Below are positions 55,767 to 59,285 of a stretch of 64,000 nt of DNA, one piece after another. The stretch's first letter is position 1, and each line of letters opens with the position of its first letter. The DNA comes from an uncultured bacterium (GTDB lineage Bacteria > Patescibacteriota > Minisyncoccia > UBA6257 > 2-01-FULL-56-20): positions 556,011 through 620,010 of the forward strand of contig OY970175.1 of the NCBI GenBank assembly GCA_963707865.1, written 5' to 3'. The notes below the pieces were generated by a model. That model was not told the DNA's origin and made no database searches. It saw nothing but the letters and a program-made list of their open reading frames with translations. A program made the translations under genes and the position numbers.

Positions 55767-56267
55767 TTATCTGATCTTTCCGGCCTTATCGCGATCCGGC
55801 TCATGCATGCCGCCTTGAACTGTTTTACGTGCTTCGGCAAAGCTTTTATCATCCGTCGGCGGTGTTGATTTCAATAATTCGTTGTAGCGCTGGTGTAAGT
55901 TTTCTATGGCGATAACCAACGCCTCATCAGTCAGCCTTGTCGACTGCGATTCGCGGAGGAAACGGGCGTCGTGCTTTAATGTCGTGAAATTCTTCGCTGC
56001 TGCGAGATGATCTTGGTATGTTTTGTTGGGATTTAGAACGGCTGTGACCGCAGACACCGTGGCGGAGAGGATAGTGAACGGCAAAAGCCATTCGCCAAGC
56101 CAATGGACAGCCACAAGCGTGCTCGATAAAGCAGCGCAGATGGCTGGAACAACTTCAAACCAAGTCGCCTTCCTCTTTGCCCAAACGGCGAGGCGATGAT
56201 GGGCCTCCGCCGTATACGTGCAGTTCTGCTGGATAATTCCACACTCTTCTATATATTTTTCTCTCAT
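55767..56267 (-). CDS. small two-TM protein resembling SLATT-type effectors
   Basis: Amphipathic N-helix (YTAEAHHRLAVWAKRK), then two TM helices (VVPAICAALSSTLVAVHWL, LLPFTILSATVSAVTAVL) and a helical tail. It is the last gene of the nucleotidyltransferase operon. Confidence 0.45.
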   Translation of the reverse strand: MREKYIEECGIIQQNCTYTAEAHHRLAVWAKRKATWFEVVPAICAALSSTLVAVHWLGEWLLPFTILSATVSAVTAVLNPNKTYQDHLAAAKNFTTLKHDARFLRESQSTRLTDEALVIAIENLHQRYNELLKSTPPTDDKSFAEARKTVQGGMHEPDRDKAGKIR

Positions 56268-56284
56268 GGTTTTATTTTATAATT

Positions 56285-57205
56285 TTACAGCGTTGCAGGG
56301 AAATGATCCGGAAACAATTCCCTCCACATTTCAATTTTTGTGCCCTGTTGCGGAGCGGCGTTGATACCGCGGATGTAGTTGGCGATCGTGACAAACGTAC
56401 CGCTGAGTTGCCGCGCTTTATCGGGATCGAACACAATGGGCGTCGACTTACTGCCGGGTATTCCAATCGGAGCCGAGAGCTGAGCGGACGCGTCCGCGAA
56501 AAACTCCCGGAGAAGGTCGTGATAAAACACGGACACGTTGTTCGACCTCTTAACCACCACCGAAAGCGGGATGTTCTTCGTCGCAAGTATCTCCAGTGGG
56601 AAAGAATCCATATCCGCGAAATATCTCTGCTTGAGGGCTTTGAGCATTTTGATCGCAGGAATCAAGTATCCCCCGCTCGCCTCGTTCTGTTTTGAAATAT
56701 ACTCGGCTTCGTAATCGTAATCCGCCATCTGCCACGTACCATTCTTAACAACCCAGTAACCACGACCAATGGAACCGAGCTCTCTTCCGGCGGAATCTCT
56801 CCCGATCATATCAATATACGCCGGAACAAGCTGCGCCTGAATTTCATCGGCGTATGTGACGGTAACGGTGGGCGCATCCTGAAAAGGGTTCATGTCGCCA
56901 TACCGGGCGCTTTCATTAACGGTAGAATGCAGCTGATCCAGTGCCGCTTGCGGGGTCACGCCGCCGGATGCCACCCATGCGGTAAACTCTCCTGCGATCA
57001 CGAGAATATCAATATCAAATTTTTTTCCGCTGCCCGGATGAATTCTTGTCTTGCGGGCAACCGAACCGATGAGCTTCGAATCCTTGAAGGACGGGTGGTG
57101 GTTCTGAAGGTATGTCCGCATGGCGGTATGCCGCGTAGAAACGGATTCCGCGAGCGTAGGATCAAGCTCGAGATTACTTTTCAGTTTTAGAAAATATTCG
57201 TGCAT
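56285..57205 (-). CDS. SMODS / cGAS-DncV-like nucleotidyltransferase (CD-NTase-like)
   Basis: N-terminal helix, then LIGSVARKTRIHPGSGKKFDIDILV (GS-x12-hDhDh) and a downstream YADEIQAQLVPAY (third acidic residue). Confidence 0.55.
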   Translation of the reverse strand: MHEYFLKLKSNLELDPTLAESVSTRHTAMRTYLQNHHPSFKDSKLIGSVARKTRIHPGSGKKFDIDILVIAGEFTAWVASGGVTPQAALDQLHSTVNESARYGDMNPFQDAPTVTVTYADEIQAQLVPAYIDMIGRDSAGRELGSIGRGYWVVKNGTWQMADYDYEAEYISKQNEASGGYLIPAIKMLKALKQRYFADMDSFPLEILATKNIPLSVVVKRSNNVSVFYHDLLREFFADASAQLSAPIGIPGSKSTPIVFDPDKARQLSGTFVTIANYIRGINAAPQQGTKIEMWRELFPDHFPATL

Positions 57206-57209
57206 GAGG

Positions 57210-58457
57210 TTATTTTATGTTTATGAAAAACTTCCCGCTACGGGCGATGCACAAATCATTCTGCACGAGGAAGCATTCGATCCAATGCTTGCCTGGATAT
57301 TTCGTTGATTCCCAACGGATTTCCTTGCCCTGAAAAATGTTTCCGCGCAAACCTCCAGCGGCAATCGCTGCTGGGCCGGTGTTCACGACTTGCCAATGGT
57401 AATCAAGCGGGCCGCTCGCTGCGGTCCGCGCCTGATAGCGGAGCTGGAAACCGGATCGCAGGTTCCGACCATCCGAATTGATGCCTCCAAGTTTCTTTTT
57501 TCCCGAAGCATCGTAAACGCTCGCATCAATGTGAACCTTTGCCGCTTCCGCAATCGGCCACTTTGGCAGTTCACGGTGCGAATAGTCCGCCAGCGCAGGC
57601 AATGCCTCTTCGGCTGCCAACGCTTTTTGAATCGTGGCTGGAAAATCGTCCCCGAAAATCTTCCTCCACTCATCAACGGCATCTCCTAAGCCGTCTTCCT
57701 TCTTTTCAAACTCGCACGCTTTCGTCGCCCGATTAAGAGCGGTATCCACGTGACTCCTAAGATCGGGGTCGGTAACCGTTGCGGAAAAGTAGGCGAAAAA
57801 CTCCTTGAGTATTTCTGGGTATTCCTTACCCGCAAAATCGCCGGAGGCGAAGAATGCTATGACCTTGTTTTCAATCTCGTAGGACTTTATTTTTGCGGTA
57901 CAGTTTTCTGACCACTTCTTCACCATGCGAACAAGCGACCTCGTTTTCCCCGTTTCCGCGTCAGAATCCTGTATACGTTTCATTTCCTGACGTGGATCCC
58001 ATTGTTCCCACGAGCCGTCGTTTTCAGAATTCGGAATGCGAAATGTCCCATCATCATTTTCCCAGGCGGGTAAAAGCTCAACGTCGTGCTTGGTCTCGGC
58101 AAATTCCAGGACTACGACCTTCCCAAAAGCCCGGATTGTCGTATCCGGATATTTTTCCTGCAAGATATTCCTGACATCGTTCAGAAGCTGTGATTGCTTA
58201 TTGGACTGGTTGTCGTCATACTGCGCGAATTTTTCGGGCGGCATGATAAAGATAACATCAATGTCTCTTGCGGGACGGATATGCGTATGTTTTCCATAAG
58301 ATCCAATGAGCAGCCTGGTGGTACCATCGTATTCCGTACCCGGGTAATAGTAATCGTGGAGTTTTTTACAGACCCCGGTATGTTTCGCCACCGCATCTTC
58401 CCTCTGCGCGGCCGTCAGCTTTATGTTCTCCAAAAATTTCTCGAATTGTTCCTGCAT
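57210..58457 (-). CDS. SMODS / cGAS-DncV-like nucleotidyltransferase with about 140-aa beta-rich C-terminal domain (possibly an AGS-C-type sensor)
   Basis: Contains FEKFLENIKLTAAQREDA...LLIGSYGKHTHIRPARDIDVIFIM...HDVELLPAW (GS...DxD...D triad). Confidence 0.6.
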   Translation of the reverse strand: MQEQFEKFLENIKLTAAQREDAVAKHTGVCKKLHDYYYPGTEYDGTTRLLIGSYGKHTHIRPARDIDVIFIMPPEKFAQYDDNQSNKQSQLLNDVRNILQEKYPDTTIRAFGKVVVLEFAETKHDVELLPAWENDDGTFRIPNSENDGSWEQWDPRQEMKRIQDSDAETGKTRSLVRMVKKWSENCTAKIKSYEIENKVIAFFASGDFAGKEYPEILKEFFAYFSATVTDPDLRSHVDTALNRATKACEFEKKEDGLGDAVDEWRKIFGDDFPATIQKALAAEEALPALADYSHRELPKWPIAEAAKVHIDASVYDASGKKKLGGINSDGRNLRSGFQLRYQARTAASGPLDYHWQVVNTGPAAIAAGGLRGNIFQGKEIRWESTKYPGKHWIECFLVQNDLCIARSGKFFINIK

Positions 58458-58462
58458 GGTGA

Positions 58463-58666
58463 TTACGGTTTCATGTTTCTGGCTTTCTTGAGAACCTGCG
58501 AGAGCGAATCAACGCCGAGCGATTTCTCCGCGCCACCAAGCGTCTTGATGTTGCCGTGCAGTTTGCTTAGGACGGGATATTCTTTCTTCAGGTTCTCAAT
58601 TAAGGAATCTGCCCGCTCTTTGCGGAAGCGGCCCTCATTTGTTTTTTCGTGTTCTCCAAGTTTCAT
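58463..58666 (-). CDS. small hypothetical protein (67 aa), possible HTH/SAP-like
   Basis: The ORF sits between lexA and the NTase genes with 4-5 bp gaps. KTLGGAEKSLGVDSLSQVLKKAR is helix-turn-helix-like. Confidence 0.4.
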   Translation of the reverse strand: MKLGEHEKTNEGRFRKERADSLIENLKKEYPVLSKLHGNIKTLGGAEKSLGVDSLSQVLKKARNMKP

Positions 58667-58670
58667 AGTA

Positions 58671-59285
58671 TTAATAAATATTTTCCGGAAGCGTTGCGAC
58701 GACGATGCCTTGGATCATGAACTCATCGGACAAGACGATCGGTTTGTGCGTCGGGTCGGTTGAGTTCGGCCTAAGGACAGTGACTCCACCCTCTCGGTGG
58801 AAATGCTTAACCGTTGCATCGTCATTGATCAATGCCACTACCTTATCGCCTTCTTCGGCGGTCGACTGCTGCCGCACGAGCAAAAGGTCCCCGTCATTAA
58901 TCCCCGATCTATTCATTGATGTCCCTCGGGCGCGAAGAATGAAGTACGTGTGCCCGGGATGGGCGATCTTTGTGGAAACCTCAACCATCGCTTCCGAGTC
59001 CTGCTCCGCAAGCGACGGCAAACCACAAGCGACCGATCCCACAAGCGGTACGTTCACGGTTTGTTCGGACAAGGAAGGCATTCGATTGCAGAGATGGATC
59101 ATGCCCTTCGTGCGCTTGATAAAATCACGTTCCTCCAGCCTGTCAAGCATTTTTTCCGCCGAATGGCGGGATTTATATCCCACCGCCCCGGCAATATCTC
59201 GCAACGAAGGGGTCACCCCGGTGCGAATGATCTGATTCCGGATAAAGGCGTATCCCCGAAGGTCGTTTTTCTCGGTTTTGTTCAT
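58671..59285 (-). CDS. lexA: LexA-family transcriptional repressor (S24 self-cleaving peptidase)
   Basis: GVTPSLRDIAGAVGYKSRHSAEKMLDRLEERDFIKR (LexA winged helix), cleavage region VAC-GLP (the Ala-Gly site), RGTSM (nucleophile Ser) and TVKHF (general-base Lys). Confidence 0.8.
   Translation of the reverse strand: MNKTEKNDLRGYAFIRNQIIRTGVTPSLRDIAGAVGYKSRHSAEKMLDRLEERDFIKRTKGMIHLCNRMPSLSEQTVNVPLVGSVACGLPSLAEQDSEAMVEVSTKIAHPGHTYFILRARGTSMNRSGINDGDLLLVRQQSTAEEGDKVVALINDDATVKHFHREGGVTVLRPNSTDPTHKPIVLSDEFMIQGIVVATLPENIY

Follow-up and report, generated by a model that had tools for sequence, protein, structure and literature searches.

Introduction

Operons in which a cGAS/DncV-like nucleotidyltransferase (CD-NTase) fused to an AGS-C domain stands next to a SLATT-family effector with two transmembrane helices (2TM), as in EcCdnF04-SLATT6, belong to the Type I cyclic-oligonucleotide-based anti-phage signalling systems (CBASS) in the classification of Millman et al. 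2020. Phage defence has been shown for operons of Type I CBASS that combine an AGS-C cyclase with a SLATT effector (bioRxiv 10.1101/2023.05.21.541620). How a suicidal defence of this kind is silenced until it is needed is an active question, and three DNA-damage-linked classes of CBASS regulators have been described, among them CapH/CapP, which combines a helix-turn-helix (HTH) protein with an M78 protein (bioRxiv 10.1101/2022.04.27.489752). Here we describe a 3.5-kb operon of an uncultured Patescibacteriota bacterium (GCA_963707865.1, contig OY970175.1) that carries two CD-NTases and one SLATT effector behind a LexA-type repressor. It lies in a stretch of 64,000 nucleotides (positions 556,011 to 620,010 of the contig), referred to as the window throughout; all coordinates are those of the window unless a locus is named.

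A different precedent is found in the immunity region of phage lambda, where the S24 self-cleaving repressor cI heads an operon and is co-transcribed with the membrane-acting abortive-infection genes rexA and rexB.

Results and Discussion

The operon consists of five co-directional genes on the minus strand, separated by gaps of 4, 5, 4 and 17 bp according to the list of open reading frames and the sequence itself. In order of transcription, these are:

58671-59285, minus strand: LexA-type repressor, 204 aa (Peptidase_S24 and LexA_DNA_bind)
58463-58666, minus strand: s67, 67 aa, without family match, with clusters of homologues
57210-58457, minus strand: N415, CD-NTase with AGS-C domain, 415 aa (SMODS, AGS_C, PADLOC)
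56285-57205, minus strand: N306, second CD-NTase, 306 aa (SMODS, PADLOC)
55767-56267, minus strand: SLATT-family 2TM effector, 166 aa (SLATT_4, PADLOC 2TM)

By gene content the operon is a Type I CBASS, for which signal synthesis and abortive infection are predicted. In our reading, to which we assign a probability of roughly 0.55, the CBASS is cargo that a phage-like integrated element carries in its repressor (immunity-type) operon, and RecA-stimulated cleavage of the repressor probably gates it; that the operon is triggered by the SOS response we infer from gene content and context. The repressor would bind a control region shared with a divergent block of methylase and terminase genes and hold both this block and, by negative autoregulation, its own operon low. 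RecA filaments on single-stranded DNA, arising from DNA damage or phage replication, would stimulate self-cleavage of the repressor at a Cys-Gly bond via its Ser/Lys dyad, whereupon transcription would rise and cyclases and SLATT protein would accumulate. One or both cyclases would sense infection, the Ig-like AGS-C domain possibly giving N415 a different specificity, and would make a nucleotide second messenger. The SLATT protein would then open the membrane, and the infected cell would die before phage release.

The protein at the head of the operon comprises an N-terminal winged-HTH LexA DNA-binding domain (LexA_DNA_bind, 3e-8, 33.9 bits at a cutoff of 23.7) and a C-terminal S24 self-cleaving domain (Peptidase_S24, 3e-25, 88.5 bits), and passes the NCBIfam lexA equivalog model TIGR00498 with 138 bits against a cutoff of 111. 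A residue-by-residue alignment to the E. coli LexA structures 7b5g and 1jhh showed all elements of self-cleavage to be kept. VAAG of E. coli LexA is represented by VACG, placing the scissile bond between Cys and Gly as in UmuD, the nucleophilic Ser lies in GTSM (GMSM in E. coli) and the general-base Lys in TVKH (TVKR in E. coli).

N415 was matched by SMODS over residues 2-164 (5e-31), by AGS_C, an Ig-like domain, over residues 292-415 (3e-24) and by a PADLOC CBASS cyclase model (5e-85). It carries the complete set of residues by which CBASS cyclases are recognised, GS, [DE]x[DE] (here DID) and a third acidic residue, E127 in VELLPAW, which in an alignment with CdnD 6P8U corresponds to the third catalytic Asp of that enzyme. 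N306, which shares 22% identity with N415 over the whole NTase core, was matched by SMODS (2e-15) and over its full length by a PADLOC cyclase model (1e-25), and shows part of this set, GS and DID. The 166-aa protein, encoded 17 bp downstream of N306, has two hydrophobic 19-mers at approximately residues 36-58 and 60-79 and scored 78.9 bits with the NCBIfam model SLATT_4 (cutoff 55) and 2e-21 with the PADLOC 2TM CBASS effector model. No Cap2/Cap3, HORMA/TRIP13 or other ancillary Cap genes were found in the operon.

A sequence-only reading of the same DNA had proposed a single minus-strand operon of five co-directional genes with gaps of 4-17 bp, headed by a LexA-family S24 repressor and encoding two SMODS/CD-NTase-like enzymes, the larger with an AGS-C-type C-terminal domain, and a SLATT-like protein with two transmembrane helices. 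Its coordinates proved exact throughout, and the hidden Markov model (HMM) searches that it had suggested for SMODS, AGS_C and SLATT placed every family as proposed, the repressor being borne out likewise by its three profile matches. Since both nucleotidyltransferases (NTases) fall into the SMODS/CD-NTase families, and not among antibiotic NTases, MNT proteins or CCA-adding enzymes, and the 2TM protein is a SLATT protein, none of the outcomes that would speak against that reading was obtained.

The operon thus resembles described Type I CBASS in its gene content, sharing with them an SMODS cyclase with GS, DxD and a third acidic residue, the fusion to an Ig-like AGS-C domain, the adjacent SLATT gene and the lack of Cap2/Cap3 or HORMA genes. 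Unlike these examples, it encodes two cyclases per effector, the cognate cyclase of the effector has Gln at the third catalytic position, a LexA-type repressor and the small protein s67 stand at its head, and its host is CPR-like, that is, related to the candidate phyla radiation.

To place these genes in a wider context, around 100 loci encoding relatives of N306 were fetched from genomes, metagenomes and viral contigs and annotated with local HMMs; they are numbered with an L prefix below. In 49 of 59 distinct loci an N306-type cyclase is followed by a SLATT protein of the type found in the window, and the exceptions are mostly truncated contigs. The SLATT protein of the window matches the N306-linked SLATT proteins with E values of 1e-25 to 1e-70 and the SLATT_4 partners of N415 homologues with only about 1e-3. 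Judged by these sequence relationships, it is the cognate partner of N306; N306 and SLATT form the conserved core unit, to which N415 has been added. L130, the locus most closely related to the operon, reads LexA-s67-N306-SLATT without N415 (L129 is identical to it and has an intact LexA, a 422-aa gene call there being partly antisense). Comparison by blastn showed N415 to be a gene-sized insertion relative to L130, spanning 58468-57222 of the window and thus essentially the N415 gene alone, with the microhomology AAACAT[G/A]AAA shared by the junctions. GC content was uninformative on a recent insertion.

This raises the question whether N415 is a passenger that recombination stranded without its SLATT_4 and that does not signal to the N306-type SLATT, in which case the two-cyclase system would be accidental. 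We hold this to be somewhat less probable than not. Besides the exact insertion and its microhomology, the singular arrangement suggests a passenger, as the window alone among about 60 N306-family loci has a second cyclase. The same is suggested by the homologues of N415 (53-73% identical; L001-L008, L137), each of which is followed by its own SLATT_4, a protein only remotely similar to the SLATT of the window, where N415 has no SLATT_4 partner of its own. Against it, N415 is an intact gene in which no catalytic motif is missing, and the gaps of 4-5 bp suit coupled translation. An independent viral contig (L139:1479-6221, and likewise L140) moreover encodes, in this order, a serine recombinase, a 276-aa SMODS protein, SLATT_4 and a 440-aa SMODS-AGS_C protein, with both catalytic triads intact, so that two cyclases around one SLATT are rare and not a one-off. 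The sequence-only reading had called the tandem NTases unusual, and with one such analogue they can indeed be regarded as such; the CBASS literature searched makes no mention of tandem CD-NTases. The passenger question is independent of the competing explanations for the repressor discussed below.

Deposited phage genomes yielded only three matches to N415, all of them remote. The N415-type cyclase and SLATT_4 pair was also seen inside restriction-modification operons, in the order HsdM, HsdS, 80-aa protein, SMODS-AGS_C, SLATT_4, HsdR in L004:1758-10716 and in the order LexA, N6_Mtase, SMODS-AGS_C, SLATT_4, HsdS in L006:3378-9850.

An S24/LexA-like gene directly upstream of the pair and on the same strand was found in 12 of about 60 distinct loci (window, L130, L009, L012, L015, L016 as a remnant, L019, L021, L024, L039, L042 and L063), which spread over Patescibacteria, Ignavibacteria, Nitrospirota, Omnitrophota and Alphaproteobacteria. 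The association is concentrated among close relatives: the census counted it in 8 of 20 distinct loci at least 44% identical to N306, as compared with 2 of 39 loci of greater distance; the window and L130 are to be added to these, and among 11 distinct loci of at least 53% identity (10 of the census and L130) nine have an S24 gene and one HTH plus M78. At least two repressor subfamilies take part, one with the motif 'VPLVG..CG' (window, L130, L024, L063, L016, L121) and one with 'IPIxGxANCGPA' (L009, L012, L015, L019, L021). S24-headed CBASS operons also occur with other cyclases. In L006, from a complete 651-kb Giovannonibacteria genome, LexA and N6_Mtase precede SMODS-AGS_C and SLATT_4, and in the viral contig L138 a CI-type S24 gene is followed by SLATT_6 and SMODS-AGS_C, adjoining a phage antirepressor gene.

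The repressor could in principle be the housekeeping LexA of the cell, that is, its own SOS regulator, downstream of which defence genes landed without a dedicated functional link. Its score above the lexA equivalog threshold and its being the sole S24 gene of the 64-kb window would fit, as would the Giovannonibacteria genome, in which LexA likewise heads a defence operon. Orthologues are, however, found in viral contigs and beside terminase genes, and loci of other phyla have close relatives at the head of the same cassette (L024 with E 3e-53, L063 and the remnant L016). As genomes carry only a few S24 genes, a recurrence in 12 of about 60 loci is far above chance. Together with the viral orthologues, this renders a housekeeping LexA very improbable.

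That a LexA head is unusual had been noted from the sequence alone. It turned out to be recurrent in our census, and the CBASS-regulator literature searched, which describes CapW, CapH/CapP and CapK/CapS, makes no mention of LexA or S24. With these three, which respond to DNA damage and control CBASS as well as other defence operons, the operon shares a repressor gene immediately upstream of the defence genes and, as we infer for the window, a proteolysis-based de-repression tied to single-stranded DNA. The repressor slot itself is occupied by a divergent HTH gene in L010 and L066, and L010 also has a Peptidase_M78 gene, so that a CapH/CapP-type pair (HTH_3 and M78) precedes the same SMODS-SLATT pair in this sister locus. 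CapH/CapP relies on an XRE repressor and a separate M78 (ImmA/IrrE) metallopeptidase, whereas the protein of the window unites repressor and protease in one polypeptide, presumably stimulated by RecA, and its gene runs in the same direction as the defence genes and is transcribed together with them. With no HTH_3, XRE or M78 gene in the window, its operon does not belong to the CapH/CapP systems, although it may function in the same manner.

The gene divergent from lexA begins only 55 bp away (59286-59340), and this intergenic region, shared with the ParB-methylase/terminase block, holds the only good promoter match of the operon:

59294-59321, minus strand: best sigma-70-like promoter of the operon, TTGACT, 16-nt spacer, TACAAT, 10 of 12 matches

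A ribosome-binding site, AAGAGG, lies 5 nt ahead of the lexA ATG. The operon promoter overlaps a weaker plus-strand promoter match (59305-59334) oriented toward the divergent gene. A repressor bound within these 55 bp would plausibly shut off both overlapping promoters, which favours negative autoregulation.

The divergent block is composed of the following genes:

59341-60180, plus strand: 279-aa protein, first gene of the block
60247-61524, plus strand: ParB-N6/N4 DNA methylase
61484-62257, plus strand: second methylase
62254-62775, plus strand: small terminase (TerS)
62738 to beyond the window end (64000), plus strand: large terminase (TerL), phrog_38 at 1e-77

The same ParB-methylase/TerS/TerL block stands opposite S24 repressors in L009, L015, L019 and L039, and the terminase block recurs in the IMG/VR viral contigs L120-L127. 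Among these, L121 has a LexA orthologue (E 3e-59) with unrelated small genes behind it. With a repressor divergent from phage genes, a layout kept in viral contigs and variable genes behind the repressor, the compared sequences indicate a family of phage-like elements in which the position downstream of it acts as a slot for varying cargo. TerL runs past the end of the window, and the following 4 kb, available from L119, hold a nuclease and unknown genes on the opposite strand. No att-type repeat of the nearby tRNA-Ile was found, and neither LexA by itself nor the s67 family gave matches in scans of viral contigs. Parts of diversity-generating retroelements (RVT_1, bAvd) were seen adjoining the cassette or the terminase block in L001:1-900, L009:10292-11759 and L121:11375-12490.

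The sequence-only reading had offered, as its alternative, that the operon is the immunity region of the adjacent prophage. For a phage-like element, the terminase block and the layouts of the viral contigs support this view well; it complements the assignment as CBASS and does not compete with it. The likeness to lambda cI-rexA-rexB is apparent: the S24 repressor comes first, defence cargo lies downstream, and the operon is back-to-back with the other transcription unit of the element. Unlike in lambda, the repressor has a LexA-type and not a CI-type DNA-binding domain, and the cargo is a nucleotide-signalling system in place of RexAB.

Taken further, this likeness leads to a competing explanation, in which the LexA-type protein is the maintenance repressor of the element and the CBASS is steadily co-transcribed lysogeny cargo guarding host and element against other phages. 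Activation would come via cyclase sensing only, and DNA damage would switch the element on with no role in arming the CBASS. What sets the two readings apart is the sign of regulation. A cI-rexAB-like arrangement is possible, though we consider it rather unlikely. The back-to-back position of repressor and terminase block in the window, in four other loci and in IMG/VR contigs argues for it, as do the exchanged cargo of L121, the CI-type operon beside the antirepressor gene of L138, L012, which has its S24 gene oriented divergently from a primase and an integrase gene downstream, and the independent assortment of cargo and repressor subfamily. On the other side, the link between S24 and CBASS holds without a terminase block in the fetched flanks of L021, L024, L042 and L063, and in other loci the slot is taken instead by regulators of the CapH/CapP type, for which de-repression upon DNA damage is known. 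The fully overlapping divergent promoters furthermore favour negative autoregulation over an activated promoter of the PRM type, and no complete virion gene set was found in the element of the window or in L121, which has a reverse transcriptase, helicase, methylase and serine integrase and no recognisable capsid or portal gene.

Several observations weigh against RecA-gated CBASS cargo as the explanation. The same repressor family stands beside the terminase block with unrelated cargo in L121, L126 and L127, so that the repressor may serve the element and not the CBASS. The cassettes of the window and L009 are 75% identical and have S24 repressors of different subfamilies, which indicates that the link was re-created and not simply inherited. 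No recA was seen within the 64-kb window. In the promoter scan, promoter-like sites in the control region were no more frequent than in shuffled sequence, for which reason position is the chief argument for the operon promoter. No exact 5+5 dyad is present in the control region of the window (59286-59340), and a dyad search over five related control regions gave no common operator or motif such as an SOS box; a clear dyad, TGTATAC-N4-GTATACA, was present only in the relative L024. Finally, N306 has Gln (AQLVPAY) at the position of the third catalytic carboxylate, where the family consensus is Glu. Of 113 homologues, 83 have Glu and 30 have Gln here, and the Gln form occurs where an N306-type cyclase is the sole cyclase (L009, L130), so that Gln is no proof of inactivity of N306.

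The second gene, s67, encodes a basic protein of a family of 66-67 aa that travels with the repressor side of the phage-like element family. With more than 100 clusters of homologues at 70-85% identity, it is a real gene. Neither Pfam nor PDB sequences gave a match, PHROG returned only a weak one (0.006), and an AlphaFold model (pLDDT 75.6) found no Foldseek match better than E ~1. The earlier suggestion of a possible HTH protein thus has no support in profile, PDB-sequence or fold searches and was discarded. A relationship to DUF2188 was likewise ruled out by an hhalign probability of 0.1%. The s67 family also heads other cargo, in L132:4001-5723 (and L133-L136), where a 116-aa protein, DUF3800 and a 111-aa protein are set opposite the same ParB-methylase and the LexA gene is absent. 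A DUF2188 protein of 76-86 aa with an invariant C-terminal DPxPPKDxKH recurs directly before the SMODS-SLATT pair (L010:5756-5995, L012:5631-5891, L063:4729-4986, L066:4765-4998, L079:2544-2774). It comes after an S24 repressor or a CapH-like HTH gene, in the slot that s67 holds in the window.

Downstream of the operon, two structured elements were located:

55733-55767, minus strand: weak hairpin with a 9-bp stem, 17-nt loop and A/U-rich tail, starting at the stop codon
55383-55413 and 55518-55548: perfect inverted repeat with 31-nt arms that are 104 nt apart, some 220 bp beyond the SLATT stop codon

The hairpin had been taken for the terminator that closes the operon. With -13.1 kcal/mol and a z score of -1.35 it is weak, and the terminator scan did not flag it. 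The inverted repeat, if transcribed, would be extremely stable, with a predicted RNA fold of -113.4 kcal/mol (z -11), and it occurs only once in the window. It may mark where the transcription unit really ends, as a strong terminator, or represent an insulator or a small repeat element. Rfam found no family in this structured region, and an independent assembly (L014/L119) breaks inside the right arm of the repeat. Between the operon stop codon and the inverted repeat sits a 17-nt direct repeat, TGA[A/C]GCCTCACGGTCGC, whose copies (55622-55638 and 55686-55702) are 94% identical and 64 nt apart.

Further along, a gene for a CYTH-domain protein (54262-54828, minus strand; Pfam 1e-13) lies between tRNA-Ile (54058-54132) and the CBASS operon, with a GC content of 42% compared to approximately 52-58% nearby. 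CYTH enzymes act on nucleotide triphosphates, and the gene could be further cargo of the island. At 48133-52335, the minus strand encodes a secreted protein of 1400 aa that has an LCAT/alpha-beta-hydrolase lipase domain, a C-terminal peptidoglycan-binding domain and long Thr/Ser/Gly-rich low-complexity tracts. In an episymbiotic bacterium, it may serve at the cell surface or in the interaction with a host.

Conclusion

Every module of this operon and its general regulatory logic have precedents. What appears to be new is the recurrent LexA/S24 head on a CBASS, the accessory slot for s67 or DUF2188, the doubled cyclase and the CPR host. A more far-reaching interpretation would regard LexA/S24 as a fourth class of DNA-damage regulator for CBASS, residing in a portable S24-(s67 or DUF2188)-SMODS-SLATT cassette. 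Two different cyclases, N415 with its Ig-like AGS-C sensor and the Gln-substituted N306, would serve as dual sensors feeding one SLATT pore, and in this CPR bacterium one RecA-sensitive switch would govern the whole together with the packaging genes that belong to a phage-like element. We put this forward as speculation that, taken as a whole, is doubtful.

If it held true, the LexA/S24 head would be the simplest version of such regulation, with sensor, protease and repressor in one protein, and would give CBASS a direct connection to the canonical SOS signal. Two cyclases on one pore would offer a natural test of whether effector or sensor specificity limits the range of CBASS. In elements of the poorly studied CPR bacteria, CBASS takes the same repressor-adjacent cargo slot that rexAB takes in lambda.

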